Notes: a model not told the origin generated them from the sequence alone. Positions 6,531-29,889 are shown, counted from the stretch's first letter. The stretch: 64,000 bases of DNA from an uncultured Chlorobiaceae bacterium (GCA_903859055.1 CAIOLC010000102.1:2170-66169); one strand, 5' to 3'. Numbers and translations: made by a program.

Positions 6531-8732
6531 TTAAAAAGCTTCGCCAATTCCAAAATTGAAGGTGCAGTTGCTCAAGTTCAGTTTTGAAAGACGCCAGGGC
6601 ACTGTCTCAGCGGGGTCATGCAGTTTATAGGCAAAATCAAAACGGAATGGGCCAATTGGAGAGCCTACCCGCAGCCCAACCCCGGAGTCCATCGCAAAGT
6701 CTTTTCTCAGAGAATTATAGGTGAGCGAGTAGGGGCCCGTTCTGTCCCAGATATTTCCGATGTCGGTAAAAAAGGCAATTCCGGAAGACTGATTAAAAAG
6801 TTTAAACAATTTCAGACGGTATTCAAGATTGAGCTCAAGCTTGATATCAGCGCCAAAATTTGAGGCAGCCTTACTTTTGCTGTTGCCTGGTCCGAGAGTG
6901 TTGTAGAGCCATCCCCGCATGGAGTTTGAACCACCTGCATAGAAACGGCGCTCTTCAGGTGTCGACTCGGCTTTTCCATAGGGCATCATCCACCCGATAC
7001 GTCCCCTGGCGGCAAGCTGGCCTTGCGGCGAAATGTTTTTTGAAACACCTAAAGCGGTTTCAACCTTCATATACTGTGAATAGGTTATCCCCAAAACCTG
7101 CGGATCTTTATCCGTAAATCCAGAATACTGCCGGGTATCAATGTATGTGTCTATGAGCCAGGCAAGACTTCCTGACTCTTCAAGAAGCAGGTCAAGTTTC
7201 CATATTGTCTTTTCGGGCATGACACTTGCTCGATTGGTCGAGTTTAAACGAAGCCTGAAGCTCTGGTTCACATGGGTACTCATCAGACTGTCAATTGCTG
7301 TATTGACTGCTGGTTCGTTGTCGGGATTAATTCTGATATTACTGGCAAGATCTTTCTTGAAAAGTTGTTTGAACCCGCCAAGAGAGTCTTTATTAACCCA
7401 TTCGACCTCAAAAAAATCAAAATTCAGGCGAGATGATGGATTCAGGCGGGCGTTATAGGTTGCACGGACCAGACCGGTTTTACTCGACAGAAGCACAGGC
7501 TGTCTGGTTGCAGAGTATTCTACAGTTGTTGAATAAAAGCTTCCTGTTTTTTTGAGAACAGGCATGACAAGGCTGCTTTTCAGACTGAATTCGTAAGGAA
7601 TAACCTTCGTGTATTGGCTCGCGTCGAGATTTGCCAGTACTCTGTTGTCGGAACTGCCCTGTGTGCCGTATTCGGTAGAGGTACGGAACTGTTCTCCGCC
7701 GCCAAAAAGGTTCTTGTTTTCATAAGCAAGAGAGGTGCCAAAGAAGAGAGGTCCATACCGGTTATCCATCAGTATCTTTGGCTCAATCTGGTGCTTTGGC
7801 GCGGTTTCAAGACGAACAGTGGTGTAAAGTTCACCCGCACGCACCGAATCAGGAGTGATATTGATTGACGAAAAGATATTTGTGGCTCCTAAATTCTGGA
7901 GGGTACGTTGTTCAAGACTCTGACGGGTCAACCCCCCCGGTCGGAATTCAATTCCACCCGTGATAAGATCAGCAGACACCTTCTGTTTACCGACAATTAA
8001 GCCGTTAATATTGTCATGAGTAAATTTCTGTGTTATGGGGTTGGGCTCACTTTTGCCGGATTCTTGTGCGACAGCGTGGATTGCTCCGTATTTCAGCCGT
8101 TGCGGCAAATTGAGTCTGAAGAGGAGTCCGGCCCGGTTTCCTGTGGTATCTACTTTGATGCGGATACTGTCTTCATGAAAAAAAGGATAACCATACTCCT
8201 TGAAAAAGGATACCGTTCTGTCACGCTCGTCAATCAGCCGTTCAACAGAAAAGATATCATGGAGTTTCAGCCGTTGTTGGCTGAGATACTCCTTTTTAAG
8301 CTCATCAGAAAGTCGTTCAAGTCCGTTAAATTTGATCGAGTCTATTCTCGATGGTTCATGTTCAAGAACAAGAATGTTCAGTTCCAGCTTTTTACCCTTA
8401 CTTCTGTGGGCAATGGTGTAATCGACATCAGCGTGGAAATAGCCCTTGTAGGAATAAAGCTTTTTGATCAGGAAGATGTCTTTGGCAAACTCGACAGGAT
8501 TGAATGGCTTGTGTACCCCTCCAAACAGGCCAAGCCCAAGGAACGATCGGCTTTTGGTGGTGCCTATAGTCTGCCGAAGCTCCTCAGAGCTGATGGCTTT
8601 ATTGCCAGTGAATCGAATATCGCTGACGTATGCAAGCTGCTCCGACAGCTCTTTTCTCTCTTCTGCTGTCTGGCTGTGTACCCTCAAAGCACACAAGACA
8701 AGAAGGGCGATAAGAATTAATGCTTTTGCCAA
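6531..8732 (-). CDS. Omp85 (BamA/TamA) family outer-membrane protein with POTRA domains
   Basis: Signal peptide, IRFTGN/IKFNG POTRA starts, RFYAGGSNSMRGW, SPIGPFRFDFA, terminal GIGEAF. Confidence 0.9.
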   Translation of the reverse strand: MAKALILIALLVLCALRVHSQTAEERKELSEQLAYVSDIRFTGNKAISSEELRQTIGTTKSRSFLGLGLFGGVHKPFNPVEFAKDIFLIKKLYSYKGYFHADVDYTIAHRSKGKKLELNILVLEHEPSRIDSIKFNGLERLSDELKKEYLSQQRLKLHDIFSVERLIDERDRTVSFFKEYGYPFFHEDSIRIKVDTTGNRAGLLFRLNLPQRLKYGAIHAVAQESGKSEPNPITQKFTHDNINGLIVGKQKVSADLITGGIEFRPGGLTRQSLEQRTLQNLGATNIFSSINITPDSVRAGELYTTVRLETAPKHQIEPKILMDNRYGPLFFGTSLAYENKNLFGGGEQFRTSTEYGTQGSSDNRVLANLDASQYTKVIPYEFSLKSSLVMPVLKKTGSFYSTTVEYSATRQPVLLSSKTGLVRATYNARLNPSSRLNFDFFEVEWVNKDSLGGFKQLFKKDLASNIRINPDNEPAVNTAIDSLMSTHVNQSFRLRLNSTNRASVMPEKTIWKLDLLLEESGSLAWLIDTYIDTRQYSGFTDKDPQVLGITYSQYMKVETALGVSKNISPQGQLAARGRIGWMMPYGKAESTPEERRFYAGGSNSMRGWLYNTLGPGNSKSKAASNFGADIKLELNLEYRLKLFKLFNQSSGIAFFTDIGNIWDRTGPYSLTYNSLRKDFAMDSGVGLRVGSPIGPFRFDFAYKLHDPAETVPWRLSKLNLSNCTFNFGIGEAF

Positions 8733-8766
8733 CCATGAATCCCGTTTTGTCGTGCGTTCTCTCGTA

Positions 8767-8994
8767 CTATGTTAATTGCTCTTCATCATCATACCCAAAC
8801 TCCTCGTCAGTGGGGTAGTCAGGCCATATTTCATCAAGACTTTCATACATATCATCGCTTTCAGGAAGATCATACAGGTTCTCAATCACCTGTTGGGGCG
8901 CACCTGTCCTGCTTGCATAATTAATCAACTCATCTTTTGTTACAGGCCATGGAGCATCGGCTATATGACGGGCAAGATCTAAATTCCAGTACAT
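8767..8994 (-). CDS. DUF2795 family small acidic protein
   Basis: MYWNLDLARHIADAPWPVTKDELINYASRTGAP...IWPDYP. Confidence 0.8.
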   Translation of the reverse strand: MYWNLDLARHIADAPWPVTKDELINYASRTGAPQQVIENLYDLPESDDMYESLDEIWPDYPTDEEFGYDDEEQLT

Positions 8995-9019
8995 ACTTCT
9001 CTTGATTGAATTATTCGGG

Positions 9020-9814
9020 TTAGGAGTGATTATCTCTCAGTTCAAGTGAACTTTTTTGTGTTGTTATGAATTTATCAGGGTTTATATCATTAAAAAAATA
9101 TGCAGTCGGATTGACTTTGACATTATCTTTTTGTACTTCGTAGTGCAGATGGGGTGCTGTTGATATGCCGGTATTGCCCGAGAGCGCAATAATGTCGCCT
9201 CGACAGACCTTCTTGCCCTGTTGTACCAGCAATTTTGAGAGATGTGCATAAATGGTTTTATATCCGTATCCGTGATTGATCGCGATGGTTTGTCCGTACC
9301 CCTTGTCATAGCCTGAATAAACGACAATGCCATCACCTGTTGTCTGGACTTTTGTCCCTTCAGATGCAGCCATATCAATACCCTGGTGAAAAAGAGAGAG
9401 GTTATAGAGCGGGTGTACTCTTAAACCGAATGTGCTGGTAATAGAGCCATTCACAGGTTTGATGTTTGGAACACTTGAAACAAAGGAGGTTGGATCCGGG
9501 TTGTCTGCAAACTCCCCTGTTTCAAGGCCGTTGGCGTTCTGCCGCTCTATCTGCATGACCATCTGCTCAATCATCTGTTCTGCATTGGCAAGAAAACCCT
9601 CTGCTCTTTTGGTCTGGTCTGGCTTTATTTTCCCGTTCTCTCCGGCTTTTTTTTCTGTAGCGAAAAGAGCTGTTGGAGTAAATACGGCAAACGACAGAAA
9701 AATTGTTACTGCCGAAAAAAGAAAAAAAAGTACTTCCCGCAGATGGCTGTAACCAGAGTCAACTGCTTTTTTGCGGTATTCAGACGGCATTGCAAGCCGG
9801 GATGTCGAAGTCAT
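9020..9814 (-). CDS. M23 family metallopeptidase (start codon uncertain: 9868, 9814 or 9790)
   Basis: N-terminal TM segment; HQGIDM (HxxxD) and STAPHLHYEV (HxH). Confidence 0.88.
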   Translation of the reverse strand: MTSTSRLAMPSEYRKKAVDSGYSHLREVLFFLFSAVTIFLSFAVFTPTALFATEKKAGENGKIKPDQTKRAEGFLANAEQMIEQMVMQIERQNANGLETGEFADNPDPTSFVSSVPNIKPVNGSITSTFGLRVHPLYNLSLFHQGIDMAASEGTKVQTTGDGIVVYSGYDKGYGQTIAINHGYGYKTIYAHLSKLLVQQGKKVCRGDIIALSGNTGISTAPHLHYEVQKDNVKVNPTAYFFNDINPDKFITTQKSSLELRDNHS

Positions 9815-23920: not shown

Positions 23921-24589
23921 CTACCGACTTCTTTTCCCGAAACCCTGCCCCGGTCGCCCATGTCCCCCTGTTTCTTCTGGAGCAATAAATTCATAGACTT
24001 TTTCGGCTGTCATCTTATTGGCGACAGCGATTTCAGTCAGAGTCTGCTCTTCGGAAACAACGGTTAACCCCGCTTGTTCCAGCTTTGCTTTCAAGGCGGC
24101 AGCGTCACCGCCCAGCCCTGGTTGCTCTGCCAGTTGCGTAAGGTTCATAAGCTCTGCATGTGGAACAGGGGGTTGCTTTTCCTGACGTTCCCAGGAGCCG
24201 GAAATTGAATCGCCTAACTTGATCACTGACGAGAAGGGCTGGAGGCCAAAGTAAGTCCCTGTTCCAAACAACAAGGAGAGAGCAATTATGACGAGCAGCT
24301 CCCTGGGATTGTTAAGCCCAGCACTGGTTTTGGATTTCAGATAGCAGAGGAAGGCTTTCCAGTTGATAAAAAAGAGGTGGAACAGAGAGAGGATTAAAAA
24401 GGAAAAGCCGAAGATGATATGCTGGTGCTGCCATCCCCTTTTTGTTAAACCGATTATTTGCCAGTCAGTCCAGTTGGCGACTCTTCCGTGAGGAGAGATA
24501 TAGAGGATTACCCCTGAAACCAGCATCATGAAAAGCGCGATGAAAAGGCCGAAGCTGATAAAGACCCGCCAACTGAATGATTTTTTCAT
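23921..24589 (-). CDS. DUF4405-like membrane protein with conserved His (possible heme b binder)
   Basis: MKKSFSWRVFIS, SGVILYISPHGRVANW, WQHQHIIFG, LFHLFFINW; its ATG overlaps the upstream TGA. Confidence 0.75.
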   Translation of the reverse strand: MKKSFSWRVFISFGLFIALFMMLVSGVILYISPHGRVANWTDWQIIGLTKRGWQHQHIIFGFSFLILSLFHLFFINWKAFLCYLKSKTSAGLNNPRELLVIIALSLLFGTGTYFGLQPFSSVIKLGDSISGSWERQEKQPPVPHAELMNLTQLAEQPGLGGDAAALKAKLEQAGLTVVSEEQTLTEIAVANKMTAEKVYEFIAPEETGGHGRPGQGFGKRSR

Positions 24590-24819
24590 GGCTTGGTGAT
24601 TGCTGGTTTCCATTGACTGGTCGTATGGCACACAGAGCAGTTCGCCTGCGTCTGGCGGTGCAGATTATCATCAGGCTGGTCACGTTTATGACACCTGATA
24701 CACTGCGATGAAGCATTCAGCCTTCTGTGGTCGAAGCTTGCGTGCTGTTCAGTGGTTTTTGCGGCATTTGCAGCAGAGCTGAACAGCATGGCTATCGTGA
24801 TAAACAATAATCTCTTCAT
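24586..24819 (-). CDS. Exported diheme c-type mini-cytochrome
   Basis: Signal peptide MKRLLFITIAMLFSSAANA; CIRCH and CSVCH; extra His in FDH and NLH; GAGG RBS. Confidence 0.85.
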   Translation of the reverse strand: MKRLLFITIAMLFSSAANAAKTTEQHASFDHRRLNASSQCIRCHKRDQPDDNLHRQTQANCSVCHTTSQWKPAITKP

Positions 24820-24843
24820 GGCATCACACCTCTTGATTTTGTA

Positions 24844-25257
24844 TTACCGATTCATTCCTGCGCCTCGCCCCATTCCCTGCCCCATTCCCATATTCGGGTT
24901 GTACTGATCCCATACCCATTCAGCTACGGCGCGTAATTCAGCATCCGGCAGCGTGAGGGCAGGCATAAGACCAAATCGGGTAATGGCTTGAGGGTCAATT
25001 GCGCTGTTTTTGTTCGGTGATTTCAGGTAAGCAACAATGTGATTCATACCCTCTTTTTTTGTCTGGAACTTCAGATGGTAGCGGTTAGCGAGCGGCATAA
25101 TTGGCGGGGCAGCTTTTGGCGGGGGCATCACGGAATGGCAGACACTGCAACTTCTGGTAAAAATCTCCTGGCCACTCAATGCTTTAGCTGATACGATTGG
25201 CGGTGAAAACCCTGACACCAAACCGGACAGAATACAAACGGACAGAACTCTTTTCAT
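24844..25257 (-). CDS. Exported class I monoheme cytochrome c
   Basis: AGGAG RBS before the ATG at 25257, signal peptide, CSVCH, distal Met in RFGLMP. Confidence 0.88.
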   Translation of the reverse strand: MKRVLSVCILSGLVSGFSPPIVSAKALSGQEIFTRSCSVCHSVMPPPKAAPPIMPLANRYHLKFQTKKEGMNHIVAYLKSPNKNSAIDPQAITRFGLMPALTLPDAELRAVAEWVWDQYNPNMGMGQGMGRGAGMNR

Positions 25258-25776: not shown

Positions 25777-26142
25777 ATGAAAAGCTCTCTTGAAGTGAAC
25801 CCCGCTGCGGCCCTTGCCATGATTCAAAAGGGAGCATTGCTTGTTGATGTACGCGAATCGCGTGAAATTGCCGAAAAGTCATTTGATCTGCCGGATGTTA
25901 TCCAGATTCCTTTGGGTGAAATGAAAAGCCGGTATCGTGAAATACCTGAAAACCGTCAGGTAATTGTGGCCTGTCGCAGTGGTAGTCGCAGCATGATGGC
26001 AACCAGCTTTCTTGCGGGGAAGGGATACAGCAAAGCAATGAATATGCAGAACGGAATAATGGGATGGGAAAGGGAGGGGCTGCCACTCAAAACACAACCG
26101 AAACAAGCAGGAGGAGGATGGCTGCAACAGATATTTGGGTGA
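25777..26142 (+). CDS. Single-domain rhodanese (sulfurtransferase)
   Basis: LLVDVRE, active-site loop CRSGSRS, GIMGWEREGLP. Confidence 0.93.
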   Translation: MKSSLEVNPAAALAMIQKGALLVDVRESREIAEKSFDLPDVIQIPLGEMKSRYREIPENRQVIVACRSGSRSMMATSFLAGKGYSKAMNMQNGIMGWEREGLPLKTQPKQAGGGWLQQIFG

Positions 26143-26252: not shown

Positions 26253-26411
26253 TCAGGAGTGTCCGCCAACGACAACCCTCATAATCTTGACATTTAACAC
26301 AACAAATCGAACAAGCTGCCACAGCAGGTTTTTCCGCCAATAGAGTATCCCTTTTGATGGTACCGGCGGATAAGCTTCATCGTAATATGCTTTAACTTTA
26401 TTGGTGCCCAT
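26253..26411 (-). CDS. 52-aa small protein directly downstream of sqr (not in the ORF track)
   Basis: Hand translation MGTNKVKAYYDEAYPPVPSKGILYWRKNLLWQLVRFVVLNVKIMRVVVGGHS; starts 35 bp after the sqr stop and ends before the hairpin. Confidence 0.75.
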   Translation of the reverse strand: MGTNKVKAYYDEAYPPVPSKGILYWRKNLLWQLVRFVVLNVKIMRVVVGGHS

Positions 26412-26446: not shown

Positions 26447-27901
26447 TTATTCAGGAATTAACCACCAGAATGGATAACCCTTTGCTTTATGGAAAAAGAG
26501 ATAGTGCAGGATTACTTTCAACCAGTGCCCTGCCAGACCAGCCTCTCCGAGAGAGTAGTTCATATCGCGACCCCATTCAGGATATTTGTCCCAGTCAGGA
26601 ACAACAGGAAAGAGGGTCATTGATGCGCCGAGTCCATCCAATGAACCAAAACCCGCTGATACAACACATGCGGCGCCCATTCTGCTCATTGAGGCTTTAT
26701 GGCGATGCTCTTTGGCCCCCTGAATTTGTTCAGCAATATTCAGTGCTACAATTTTACCCATAACACCTGCAGGCATACCAGTTCGCGGTGCTGTCGGAAA
26801 AATCTGACGGCCACTCGGGCTTGCCATGGGTTTGGAAATAGGATGCGGAGGGGCAAAGGCTATGCCAGGAGCATAGATATTTTTGTAGAGAGGATTCTGG
26901 TAAAGAGAGGGCCAGTCATCAGCCTCCCACTCCTCAAAAGGTTTTGCCTCATAATTTGCATCAACTTTCATAAACTTGTTTGGCGCAAACATCTTTTCGG
27001 TAATTTCGACTCCAATCTTGTCATAAGCCGTCAGACCAGCTCCTGAAAATGAGGGGATGAGCATGGCGAAGTCAAATTCCTGAATACACTCTTTACCATC
27101 CAGTGTTTCATAATATGCCTTGCCTGGTTCAACCCTGTGAACTCCGGCTCGTTTTATCCATTTGATACCATATTCGGCCATGAGGGATTCAGTGAAGACC
27201 TTCGTCGGAGTGTAATAGCCCCCCCTGTTAATAAAAGCACCTGCCATGCCAAAATCACCCAGCTCATACTCATTGGAGATCCAGGTGATCTGCGCCATAT
27301 TACTCAGACCCCGTTTTGAGATCTCCCAGGCCACATTCAGAATGTATTCAAAGGCTGCCCCCTGGCAGGTTGCCATTGCATGGCCCGTGCCGATCAAAAT
27401 GCGCTGCTTCTTGCCAGCCTGCATCTTTTTGATATTGTCCTGAAGATGTTCCCATGCGTGGGCCGCATGGTCGTATGTACAAACTGAAAAAGTGTTCTTG
27501 TCGGGACCGAGCCCCTCGGTTGCCTCAAAATTCAGCTTTGGACCGGTGGCATTGACCAGAAAATCATAGTCAACCTTTTCGCGTTCTCCCTTTCTCAACA
27601 GGTCGGTGTACTCAATGGTCACATACCCTTTCTTGATTTCACTATCCCCTTCCGGGTGTATTGCAACAGCTTTGGCCTGCTTCAGGATGATGCCCCAGCG
27701 GTTATAAACTTTTTTCAGTTCAAAGCGGACATCATCAATTTTCATCTGGCCAACACCAACCCAGATGTTTGACGGAGTCCACTGATAGTAACTGTTTGGG
27801 GTAACGACAACAACCTCATGCTGTTTGCCAAGTTTCTTTTTGAGAAAAGAGGCTGCGGTATGTCCTGAAACACCTGCTCCTAAAACTACAACTTTTGCCA
27901 T
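26447..27901 (-). CDS. sqr: Sulfide:quinone oxidoreductase, type IV (SqrD/SqrX-like)
   Basis: VVVLGAGVSG FAD motif; Cys in SVCTYDH, ATCQGAAFE and GAACVVSAG; PRTGM; C-terminal GHWLK...YPFWWLIPE. Confidence 0.93.
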   Translation of the reverse strand: MAKVVVLGAGVSGHTAASFLKKKLGKQHEVVVVTPNSYYQWTPSNIWVGVGQMKIDDVRFELKKVYNRWGIILKQAKAVAIHPEGDSEIKKGYVTIEYTDLLRKGEREKVDYDFLVNATGPKLNFEATEGLGPDKNTFSVCTYDHAAHAWEHLQDNIKKMQAGKKQRILIGTGHAMATCQGAAFEYILNVAWEISKRGLSNMAQITWISNEYELGDFGMAGAFINRGGYYTPTKVFTESLMAEYGIKWIKRAGVHRVEPGKAYYETLDGKECIQEFDFAMLIPSFSGAGLTAYDKIGVEITEKMFAPNKFMKVDANYEAKPFEEWEADDWPSLYQNPLYKNIYAPGIAFAPPHPISKPMASPSGRQIFPTAPRTGMPAGVMGKIVALNIAEQIQGAKEHRHKASMSRMGAACVVSAGFGSLDGLGASMTLFPVVPDWDKYPEWGRDMNYSLGEAGLAGHWLKVILHYLFFHKAKGYPFWWLIPE

Positions 27902-27982: not shown

Positions 27983-28186
27983 TTACTTGAACGCATGACC
28001 GGACTCGATGCCAACAGCCTTTAAAATTTTGGCCACAGGGCAAAAGCCGGTAAATGCTGCCTGAAAAAGGTTTGCACCTACAAAGCCGGTAAACCAGAGC
28101 CAGTTCGGGTTGTGATAGAGAGAGAGTAAAACGCTTGAAAGCACAAAACAGCCTGCAATTGCAAAGACGATACGATCGATATTCAT
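27983..28186 (-). CDS. DUF2892 (YgaP-like transmembrane domain) protein
   Basis: [12 protein letters not shown], two TM helices, [16 protein letters not shown]. Confidence 0.88.
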
Positions 28187-28237: not shown

Positions 28238-28912
28238 TTATTCATTATCCCGGGTCGCTGATTCTTTTTTTGTTGCCGTAACAAGAAATACTGGATATGC
28301 TGCCGTAAAGCCTGCTCTGTTTGTTTTGTTGAAGGTGTATATGGTCTCAAACGACTTCACCTCCAGACCGGCACCATGCAGTAACGCAGCAAGCTTCGTA
28401 CGGTCAAATCCGTGATGAACCTTTTCAAGCGGGTCGTCATGAAACAACCCATCTTCCATGTCAAGATCAGCCAGTGCGAGAGTGCCGCCGGGAGAGAGCA
28501 GAGTGGAGAGGCGGTTCAGAAACCCTGCCGTGTCATCAATATGGTGAAGCGTCATGCTGCTGTAAATCAGCTCAAAGCTGCTGTTGTGCAGAGCGCACTC
28601 AGATGGTGATGAGAGATTTATACAGCTTGCCTCAATGCTCTCTATGCCCGATGTTCTGATTTTCTCCTTCAGCACGGCGAGCATCTCACGGGAGGTATCA
28701 ATTGCCCGGAGGGTTTTCACCAACGGAGCAATTTCCATGGTGAGCAGACCTGTGCCGCATCCGAACTCCAGAGCATGCATGGTTTTGTTCGGGCTTGTTG
28801 CAGTAATGATTGCTTTGGCAACAGTGAGAGCAACCGCTCTGCGTTGAGGATTTGCGTCCCACTCGGCGGCTTCGCGATTAAATTTTTCTGAACTGTTCCA
28901 GGTGCCGGACAT
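28238..28912 (-). CDS. Class I SAM-dependent methyltransferase
   Basis: LEFGCGTGLL, IDTSREML, YSSMTLHH, LSPGG. Confidence 0.9.
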   Translation of the reverse strand: MSGTWNSSEKFNREAAEWDANPQRRAVALTVAKAIITATSPNKTMHALEFGCGTGLLTMEIAPLVKTLRAIDTSREMLAVLKEKIRTSGIESIEASCINLSSPSECALHNSSFELIYSSMTLHHIDDTAGFLNRLSTLLSPGGTLALADLDMEDGLFHDDPLEKVHHGFDRTKLAALLHGAGLEVKSFETIYTFNKTNRAGFTAAYPVFLVTATKKESATRDNE

Positions 28913-28952
28913 AGTGATAAGTGTAGAAATTATAAAAGAGTAAAAAGAGCCA

Positions 28953-29420
28953 TCAGGGCTGTAAATCAGAGATGCACCCACCCTTCCGTTTAAGGGATGC
29001 GCCGCAGTGAGGGCACAGTGTCTCTCTGCAAGGCTCTCCCTTCAGGTGCGGCAGCTCAAAGCTGCATGCAGGACAAACACAAATATCAGGACGGTTAGTT
29101 GGAAAAGAGTCACAGAGAGAGCGTACAACTCCCCCCTGGATACAGAGTTGTTTGCCGCCAACAATGGCTTCTGCAACTTTTTTGCGGGCAGCTTCAAGAA
29201 TACGGCCAAAGGTTGGGCGCGATACATTCATCTGCACCGCAGCCAGAGCCTGATATAAACCCTCCTTGTCGGCCAGCCTGATAGCTTCGAGCTCGTCAAC
29301 AGTCAGCATCACGCTTTCCAGCACGTCGGGCGATACCCCTTCGGGCTGGAAACAGGTTACCTTCGGTAGCTCCCGGACACAGCGGCAGAGTGTAGGCCGT
29401 CCTGCTCGATTGGTTGTCAT
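28953..29420 (-). CDS. DUF134 (UPF0251) putative DNA-binding protein with a Cys-rich C-terminal tail
   Basis: GRPTLCR, ELEAIRLAD.EGL.Q...A..MNVSRPTFGRIL..AR.KVAEA; tail CVCPAC...CRETLCPHCG. Confidence 0.85.
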   Translation of the reverse strand: MTTNRAGRPTLCRCVRELPKVTCFQPEGVSPDVLESVMLTVDELEAIRLADKEGLYQALAAVQMNVSRPTFGRILEAARKKVAEAIVGGKQLCIQGGVVRSLCDSFPTNRPDICVCPACSFELPHLKGEPCRETLCPHCGASLKRKGGCISDLQP

Positions 29421-29445: not shown

Positions 29446-29847
29446 TTACCGGGTAACTGCTTTAACAATAAACTCAGGCGGATCCATAATGTGCTTTTTA
29501 ACCGCGCAGAGATTGGCTGCACTGATAACCGCATCCTTGTATTTTTCAGGAAAATCCGGTGGCAGCTCAATGGCGATTTCGATTTTTCCAATGCCCTTCC
29601 CCGACTCTTTTGAAAAATGTGATTGAACAAGCCGGATGCCCCCTGTCGGGATGCCTCTGCTCTGGCAAAAAGAGAGGACAAAAATACCTGCACAGGTTCC
29701 GATTGATGCAAGAAAAAGGGAAAAAGGCTCAGGAGCTGAACCCTCTCCACCAGCATATTCCGCCTGATCGGTATGAATGGTAAAGCCATTAAAGTCGGCA
29801 TTCACCTTTTTCCCGCCTCCGAACGTCACGATCATTTCGCTATTCAT
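29446..29847 (-). CDS. OsmC-like protein
   Basis: TDQ...GGEGSAPEPF.LFLAS.GTCAG and LCAVKKH (two Cys). Confidence 0.87.
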   Translation of the reverse strand: MNSEMIVTFGGGKKVNADFNGFTIHTDQAEYAGGEGSAPEPFSLFLASIGTCAGIFVLSFCQSRGIPTGGIRLVQSHFSKESGKGIGKIEIAIELPPDFPEKYKDAVISAANLCAVKKHIMDPPEFIVKAVTR

Positions 29848-29889
29848 GATAAAGAGTAGTGACAATAGTTGCTTTAAAACTTTAGTAAC

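Follow-up and report, generated by a model that had tools for sequence, protein, structure and literature searches.

It was only in 2024 that membrane proteins of the DUF4405 family came to be known as haem b cytochromes, and the partners recognised then all carried flavin. The evidence for haem b is spectroscopic and comes from an Oscillospiraceae protein that has six helices and four histidines (Huang et al. 2024, bioRxiv 10.1101/2024.03.13.584918 / PMC11334425); beyond this protein, haem b binding has been shown only for FezC (Huang et al. 2024, bioRxiv 10.1101/2024.03.13.584918), a half-size ferrosome relative for which homodimerisation is the proposed route to DUF4405-like bis-His haem sites (PMC11334425). 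Here we describe an operon that sets a half-size DUF4405 protein beside two exported c-type cytochromes (positions 23921–25257, minus strand), in a 64,000-nucleotide stretch of DNA from an uncultured Chlorobiaceae bacterium (GCA_903859055.1 CAIOLC010000102.1:2170-66169; hereafter the window). The genome carrying the window is a Chlorobium metagenome-assembled genome of 2.65 Mb. In our assessment the operon is fairly probably a small membrane-to-periplasm electron relay, a c-cytochrome-partnered variant of the DUF4405 conduit.

The flavinylation-associated DUF4405 cytochromes share with the window's protein the Pfam domain and conserved transmembrane (TM) histidines, and they are proposed to carry electrons through the cytoplasmic membrane to a partner outside the cytoplasm. 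They differ in their company: described members pair with ApbE and flavinylated flavodoxin-type proteins, whereas the DUF4405 of the window has periplasmic helical repeats and c-type partners. No ApbE or FMN (flavin mononucleotide)-binding domain was found by Pfam in the nine cassette and neighbouring island proteins scanned. A flavinylation link was considered and set aside, the genome's only ApbE match lying on contig C245 and not in the cluster. Neither c-type partners nor Chlorobia are mentioned by Huang et al. 2024 (PMC11334425), and a literature search found no paper linking DUF4405 to Chlorobia or to c-type partners. An earlier note on this DNA, which proposed a quinol-to-periplasm wire, had named a DUF4405 that binds no haem as grounds for abandoning it; at the level of the family, haem is bound (Huang et al. 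2024, bioRxiv 10.1101/2024.03.13.584918).

Gene anatomy and haem ligands of the operon

The three open reading frames (ORFs) that the earlier note had assigned to one operon are all present where it placed them, on the minus strand: a monoheme class I cytochrome c (24844–25257, 137 aa, Pfam PF00034 above cut-off), an exported mini diheme cytochrome c (24586–24819, 77 aa, two CxxCH motifs) and the DUF4405 membrane protein (23921–24589, 222 aa, Pfam PF14358 above cut-off). An ATGA on the minus strand (24586–24589), read directly from the sequence, joins the last two genes, the DUF4405 ATG (24589–24587) overlapping the diheme TGA (24588–24586) as had been claimed. Of 28 diheme-bearing loci (sampled as described below), 21 share this abutting, overlapping junction, which is predicted to couple translation of the diheme and DUF4405 proteins. 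A promoter and terminator scan of the locus gave no signal above shuffled background.

The DUF4405 protein matches PF14358 at 54.5 bits (cut-off 26.7), with the whole model (1–66 of 66) aligned to residues 10–77. An AlphaFold2 (AF2) model places three TM helices at residues 7–31 (TM1), 50–75 (TM2) and 95–114 (TM3), with an amphipathic helix at 77–90. The C-terminal part is made of two helix-turn-helix-like helical repeats (residues ~146–205), followed by a truncated Gly-rich linker. A sequence profile of the protein found no meaningful match in the PDB.

Histidines in adjacent TM helices, as the earlier note had described them, do not survive comparison with 151 relatives. The only near-invariant TM histidines are H57 (24419–24421; 151/151) and H71 (24377–24379; 150/151), both on TM2 and 14 residues apart, a spacing predicted to put one ligand near each membrane face. 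H34 (in SPHG) was rejected as a haem ligand, being histidine in 14 of the 151 and proline in most. H144, which lies in a conserved SWE...PVPHAE motif after TM3, was likewise dropped as an obligatory ligand (conserved in only 126/151). Because a chain with three helices and two conserved histidines on a single helix cannot form a bis-His site by itself, we infer a TM2–TM2′ homodimer, predicted to carry two haems b.

Usual DUF4405 orthologues are 277 aa long. The window's copy lacks the last of their three helical repeats, and its tail, GQGFGKRSR, is the linker that leads into the third repeat in the 277-aa orthologues; no remnant of that repeat was found downstream of the stop codon. Short forms without the last repeat arose repeatedly. 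We also considered, and rejected, the possibility that the 55 extra residues of the longer orthologues are a fused diheme: the C-terminal extension is the third helical repeat. Of the Gly-rich tails noted earlier on both the monoheme and DUF4405 proteins, the former is real and conserved in kind, whereas the latter is a linker left after repeat loss.

Over the same 151 DUF4405 sequences, the charge bias is +1.6 at the N-terminus and +4.0 in loop 2, against +1.0 in loop 1 and −1.7 in the C-terminal flank. The N-terminus and loop 2 are predicted to be cytoplasmic, and loop 1 and the C-terminal part periplasmic. A natural fusion bears on both the topology and the partnership. Four clusters of DUF4405 paralogues (P0140, P0144, P0146 and P0153) and the paralogue at L182:4029–4883 end in PDDELHRRTNARCSSCHQSSRW, a stretch that matches diheme residues 49–70, the LH...CxxCH half, at 64% identity over 22 aa (E 2e-9). 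Covalent attachment of c-type haem takes place on the periplasmic side only, so a paralogue C-terminus that carries a covalent-haem motif must itself be periplasmic. Through this C-terminal fusion, the membrane protein and a c-haem module are physically joined in nature, and nothing else argues as strongly that DUF4405 and the c-haem module exchange electrons directly. The half-module fused in the L182 paralogue is single (PDDELHRRT..CSSCH).

The diheme gene encodes, as the earlier note said, a 77-aa exported protein with two CxxCH motifs and spare histidines. Its signal peptide ends ANA↓A, giving a mature protein of 58 aa (A20–P77) with haem motifs CIRCH (C40–H44, 24688–24702) and CSVCH (C61–H65, 24625–24639); candidate distal ligands are H31 ('FDH', 24727–24729) and H54 ('NLH', 24658–24660). 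An alignment of 32 sequences (21 orthologues and 11 repeat units) leaves H31, C40, C43, H44, P49, H54, C61, C64, H65, W70 and P72 invariant. With neither spare histidine varying and methionine absent from the mature protein, both haems are predicted to be, and on this pattern must be, bis-His. The gene is under purifying selection, with ratios of nonsynonymous to synonymous substitution (dN/dS) of 0.08–0.28 in 16 pairwise comparisons.

Against the Pfam models for c7 (PF14522) and c3 (PF02085) the diheme scores 17.1 bits, under the cut-offs of 24.8 and 22.9; it has the bis-His pattern of class III cytochromes by sequence (two CxxCH plus H31 and H54) and not their Pfam score. The best PDB match of the diheme profile is 8K9E_A, a 'cytochrome c7-like domain' protein (E 1e-3), making it marginally c7-like. 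An AF2 model of the diheme is poor, with a predicted local distance difference test (pLDDT) score of 59. Residues 27–74 are a single unit of a 48-aa tandem repeat from 10-, 16- or 18-haem Chlorobiaceae cytochromes. Its small size, which the earlier note had called unusual, is so for a whole protein (58 aa, two haems), but 29 residues per haem is ordinary for class III cytochromes, where c7 has ~23 and c3 ~27.

The multihaem cytochromes from which this unit comes are membrane-anchored, with 10, 16 or 18 CxxCH motifs and the unit FxH...CxxCHKxDxPxDxLH...CxxCH...WKPA. Their genes include L093:4909–6324, L094:5446–6687 and L095:4580–5407, and a partial one lies at a contig end elsewhere in the window's own genome (L092:5484–5891). 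The L094 gene adjoins a 421-aa Cyc2-like porin-cytochrome (7904–9169) and a small monoheme (9236–9673). Among the Chlorobiaceae genomes examined, no multihaem cytochrome gene is adjacent to a DUF4405 paralogue. The window's genome also holds a second diheme gene, 72% identical to the first (L011, contig C233, 945–1181). This is coupled to a DUF4405 copy (1178–1585) that stops just beyond the membrane domain and is 135 aa long when counted from the overlapping ATG; downstream lies argH, and there is no monoheme upstream. One diheme orthologue, L019:2705–2934 (G090:C42), contains an in-frame TGA and is possibly a pseudogene or an assembly error.

The monoheme is the exported His/Met cytochrome c that had been claimed. 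It has a Sec signal peptide (residues 1–24, ending VSA↓K), a match to Cytochrom_C (PF00034; 28.4 bits, cut-off 21.3) and a haem motif, CSVCH, at residues 37–41 (25135–25149). Among 47 orthologues, C37, C40, H41 and M98 each reach at least 97% conservation, with M98, the candidate axial methionine, sitting in RFGxMP. All the hallmarks of class I cytochromes c are present: a CxxCH near the N-terminus, an axial Met towards the C-terminus and the PF00034 match. In a PDB search the nearest solved relative is 2L4D, the cytochrome c domain of Sco/cyt c (E 1e-3). The C-terminal tail is rich in Gly, Met and Arg (NPNMGMGQGMGRGAGMNR) and is conserved in kind among orthologues. Its low-complexity stretch (MGMGRGMG...) occupies 24847–24900 of the window, and comparable Gly/Met/Arg-rich stretches occur in DUF4405 linkers of distant relatives (P0257, P0265) and in small secreted proteins upstream of some cassettes (L052:11189–11551). 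The tail and these stretches resemble the Gly/Met-rich C-tail of Escherichia coli ZraP.

Distribution and descent of the cassette

Of 122 Chlorobiaceae genomes, 112 encode DUF4405, often with 2–4 copies each, while the full-length diheme occurs in ~32 of the 122, nearly always abutting DUF4405. To compare architectures, the best DUF4405 locus was fetched from each of 80 Chlorobiaceae species genomes and classified by tblastn. The complete monoheme–diheme–DUF4405 order was present in 20 loci (one of them, L019, with the TGA in its diheme gene), diheme–DUF4405 in 8 and monoheme–DUF4405 in about 28; in the other 24 no cytochrome c gene lies beside DUF4405. DUF4405 is the constant part, and the cytochrome partners and neighbour genes vary.

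A DUF4405 tree (quick IQ-TREE; support by the Shimodaira–Hasegawa-like approximate likelihood ratio test, SH-aLRT) gathers the cytochrome-linked genes into one clade (98%). All diheme loci fall within a single 47-member subclade of it (95%). The basal group of the cytochrome-linked clade carries the monoheme only, and later losses of either cytochrome are seen in the diheme subclade; the tree requires no fewer than 4 gains or losses of the diheme and 9 of the monoheme. Monoheme and DUF4405 are probably the older pair, with the diheme inserted later.

The sister clade has a different and uniform setting. All 18 of its loci carry genes for an extracytoplasmic function (ECF) sigma factor, an anti-sigma factor and a PF13801 Metal_resist (ZraP/Spy-like) protein, followed by DUF4405. 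The earlier note had held that its reading would suffer if the cassette usually sat among metal-resistance or other non-sulfur genes; for the wider family this is partly so, as the sister clade shows. The four-gene operon spans loci L074–L091 (for example, L077:7923–10416), and one of the genomes concerned (G025) is presumably that of C. tepidum TLS. A third paralogue group (L177–L180, for example, L178:3922–4398) consists of shorter proteins, 155–190 aa, with the loop SGRGPG instead of PPGRVANW; in several Chlorobium genomes these short paralogues adjoin a small sigma-like gene.

Outside the family Chlorobiaceae, 1454 clusters share the same DUF4405 architecture, 231 of them at E<1e-30, and the half-size architecture was located in 392 loci, mostly from Verrucomicrobiota and Planctomycetota. 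The settings of DUF4405 in these two phyla are diverse: beside a coenzyme A (CoA)-disulfide-reductase–rhodanese fusion and a methyltransferase; in a MinD/Mrp/NifX/DUF5320/DUF89/ZIP cluster; between metY and nifU–nifS (metXY–nifUS); or beside sigma-54 regulators.

A proposed relay and its alternatives

Gene anatomy, conservation, ligand pattern, predicted topology and the link between DUF4405 and c-haem are read from the DNA and its homologues; what we infer for the relay is the dimer, the number of haems, that the cytochromes dock directly, and the donor, acceptor and direction, as follows. A DUF4405 homodimer would hold two bis-His haems b between its TM2 helices, one near each membrane face. 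With the N-terminus in the cytoplasm, the C-terminal helical repeats would stand in the periplasm and there meet both exported c-cytochromes: the 58-residue diheme, with two bis-His haems, and the His/Met monoheme, with its flexible Gly/Met/Arg tail. Electrons would pass from menaquinol, or from a cytoplasmic donor, to the b haems and on to the c haems. From these they would enter the periplasmic cytochrome c pool, which supplies the photosynthetic reaction centre or some other acceptor in the periplasm. The monoheme favours outward flow, since class I cytochromes of the His/Met type normally have a high potential; taken alone, outward flow from menaquinol is a tentative and somewhat doubtful proposal. 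The earlier note had drawn a wire running from haem b through the diheme to the monoheme. The link between DUF4405 and c-haem holds up, in 21 coupled loci and in the paralogue fusion, but a fixed chain does not, as there are variants lacking either cytochrome.

Several observations weigh against such a relay. Described DUF4405 members have six helices and four histidines, whereas in the window's protein the helices number three and the conserved TM histidines two. The AF2 monomer is of moderate confidence (pLDDT 69, predicted template modelling score 0.35), and a Foldseek search of this model against the PDB returned no match below E=1. No cytochrome c gene lies beside DUF4405 in any of 80 sampled Verrucomicrobiota and Planctomycetota loci (L096–L175), nor in the 24 Chlorobiaceae loci counted above. 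Because DUF4405 occurs without an adjacent cytochrome c in so many loci, the c-cytochromes are lineage-specific add-ons, and the core function of DUF4405 may not be cytochrome c reduction.

The genes around the operon were assigned by Pfam. Outside the operon the window encodes a rhodanese (25777–26142, plus strand) and then, all on the minus strand, a 52-aa ORF (26253–26411), a sulfide:quinone oxidoreductase (SQR; 26447–27901), a YgaP-like TM protein (27983–28186), a methyltransferase (28238–28981), a DUF134 protein (28953–29420) and OsmC (29446–29865). The OsmC/DUF134/methyltransferase/YgaP island, whole or in part, recurs at ≤8 kb from DUF4405, on either side, in ~20 of 81 Chlorobiaceae loci. 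SQR orthologues exist in 80 of the 122 genomes, usually on a different contig or at a distance from the cassette; SQR lies beside the cassette in ~8–9 of the 80 loci, all from close relatives. The orthologue in G025 (81% identity) is presumably, from its position at ~112 kb, sqrD/CT0117. The 52-aa ORF behind SQR is 90–96% conserved and adjoins SQR in every locus where SQR was captured (L013, L014, L016, L018, L019, L030 and L066). An SQR orthologue at G098:C13:569–2020 contains an in-frame TAG, and could be a pseudogene or an assembly error. Other cassettes keep other company. Those of L028, L029, L052 and L057 follow genes for a sensor kinase, a sigma-54 regulator, small secreted Gly/Met-rich proteins and a putative outer-membrane barrel, and those of L028 and L029 also abut or precede dsrCABL. 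A two-gene form (cytochrome c and DUF4405) occurs in unrelated neighbourhoods in C. limicola DSM 245 and Prosthecochloris marina. A loose sulfur, Fe–S or metal theme runs through the neighbours of DUF4405, with no constant partner.

Might the operon drain menaquinol from the neighbouring SQR into periplasmic cytochrome c? In the window, as in L013, L014, L016, L018, L019 and L030, SQR and its 52-aa ORF do lie 1–2 kb away from the cassette. The dsrCABL genes of L028 and L029 point the same way, as does the frequent company of CoA-disulfide-reductase–rhodanese fusions, nifS/nifU or metY in other phyla. The adjacency is confined to close relatives, however, and is therefore explained by shared ancestry; most SQR orthologues are distant from the cassette, the two-gene forms of C. 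limicola and P. marina live in unrelated surroundings, and a quinol pool common to all quinone reductases makes adjacency to SQR unnecessary. We consider an SQR-dedicated wire quite improbable, and the supply of electrons by the neighbouring SQR, as suggested in the earlier note, is not borne out by an adjacency seen in so few loci. An envelope redox or metal stress module is likewise unlikely, if less so. Here DUF4405 would pass reducing power to periplasmic oxidised metals, persulfides or polysulfides, or damaged proteins, under the control of stress regulators, and the c-cytochromes and Gly/Met-rich tails would serve that task rather than photosynthetic electron flow. The uniform sigma, anti-sigma and Metal_resist setting of the sister clade favours it, as do the regulators, Gly/Met-rich proteins and barrel upstream of L028, L029, L052 and L057, the position of L008 behind a MacAB/OEP efflux system, the C. 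limicola copy beside a cation diffusion facilitator (CDF) transporter, the ZraP-like tail of the monoheme, and the relatives MsrQ and FoxB, which reduce periplasmic targets. Yet these neighbour families change from locus to locus, the operon encodes no reductase or obvious terminal enzyme, and class I cytochromes of the His/Met kind are typically carriers rather than stress proteins.

Flow could also run inward, from periplasmic or extracellular donors through the c-cytochromes, as kin of the Cyc2-associated multihaem wires, to the menaquinone pool. The diheme is one unit of membrane-anchored 10–18-haem cytochromes, one of which (L094) adjoins a Cyc2-like porin-cytochrome, and bis-His c haems are usually low-potential. 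This direction nonetheless appears very unlikely: the His/Met monoheme is expected to be high-potential, so that menaquinone reduction would be uphill, and no multihaem gene stands next to a DUF4405 paralogue. Hardly credible is a haem-based sensor, in which DUF4405 would read redox state or sulfide and signal through its helix-turn-helix-like C-terminal repeats or nearby sigma factors. Those repeats give weak matches to IF2_N, TetR_N and Sigma70_r4, and two paralogue groups adjoin sigma or sigma-like genes; every helix-turn-helix match is below cut-off, though, and a C-terminus that is predicted to be periplasmic, and is required to be so in the fusion paralogue, could not bind DNA.

The membrane-to-periplasm relay may be taken further, with less assurance. 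In a distinctly unlikely extension, the operon would be a minimal menaquinol:cytochrome c oxidoreductase, made of a homodimeric three-helix cytochrome b and the smallest natural diheme, by-passing the cytochrome b/Rieske complex into the donor pool of the reaction centre. The 48-residue unit would then be both building block and membrane docking piece of the 10–18-haem wires beside Cyc2-type iron oxidases. Were menaquinol indeed oxidised here, a second path linking the quinone pool with the reaction centre would have to be added to the textbook scheme of electron transport in green sulfur bacteria. Short of that, the locus shows a half-size DUF4405 core recruited to c-type cytochromes in phototrophs, a link that the natural fusion supports. 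The half-size form with helical repeats is large and unstudied (the 231 clusters above), and the cassette offers a testable handle on it. A 58-residue protein with two haems is also a possible minimal model for haem–haem electron transfer.

Comparison with described systems

FezC is likewise half-size, and the homodimer proposed for the window's DUF4405 follows the same reasoning. It differs in belonging to a ferrosome gene cluster, with a proposed role in iron redox chemistry, in its lack of c-type partners and in having a different soluble part. MsrQ (YedZ) and the PepSY_TM protein FoxB are small dihaem-b membrane proteins that feed a periplasmic partner, as DUF4405 would. They belong to other families with other helix numbers, and they serve either the Mo enzyme MsrP or ferric siderophores. 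A PDB profile search gave no sequence match of DUF4405 to either.

On the soluble side, the class III multihaem cytochromes (c7, c3 and the ActA-like 8K9E_A) combine CxxCH motifs with bis-His ligation at ~25–30 residues per haem, as in the diheme. The diheme departs from them in having only two haems in 58 residues, as a free single copy of the 48-aa repeat. For the operon as a whole the likeness is one of function only. It has no Rieske protein, no NapC/NrfH fold and no homology to the cytochrome bc complexes, the Geobacter Cbc-type complexes or NapC/CymA; with these it would share its proposed job, the passage of electrons from the quinone pool to periplasmic c-cytochromes.

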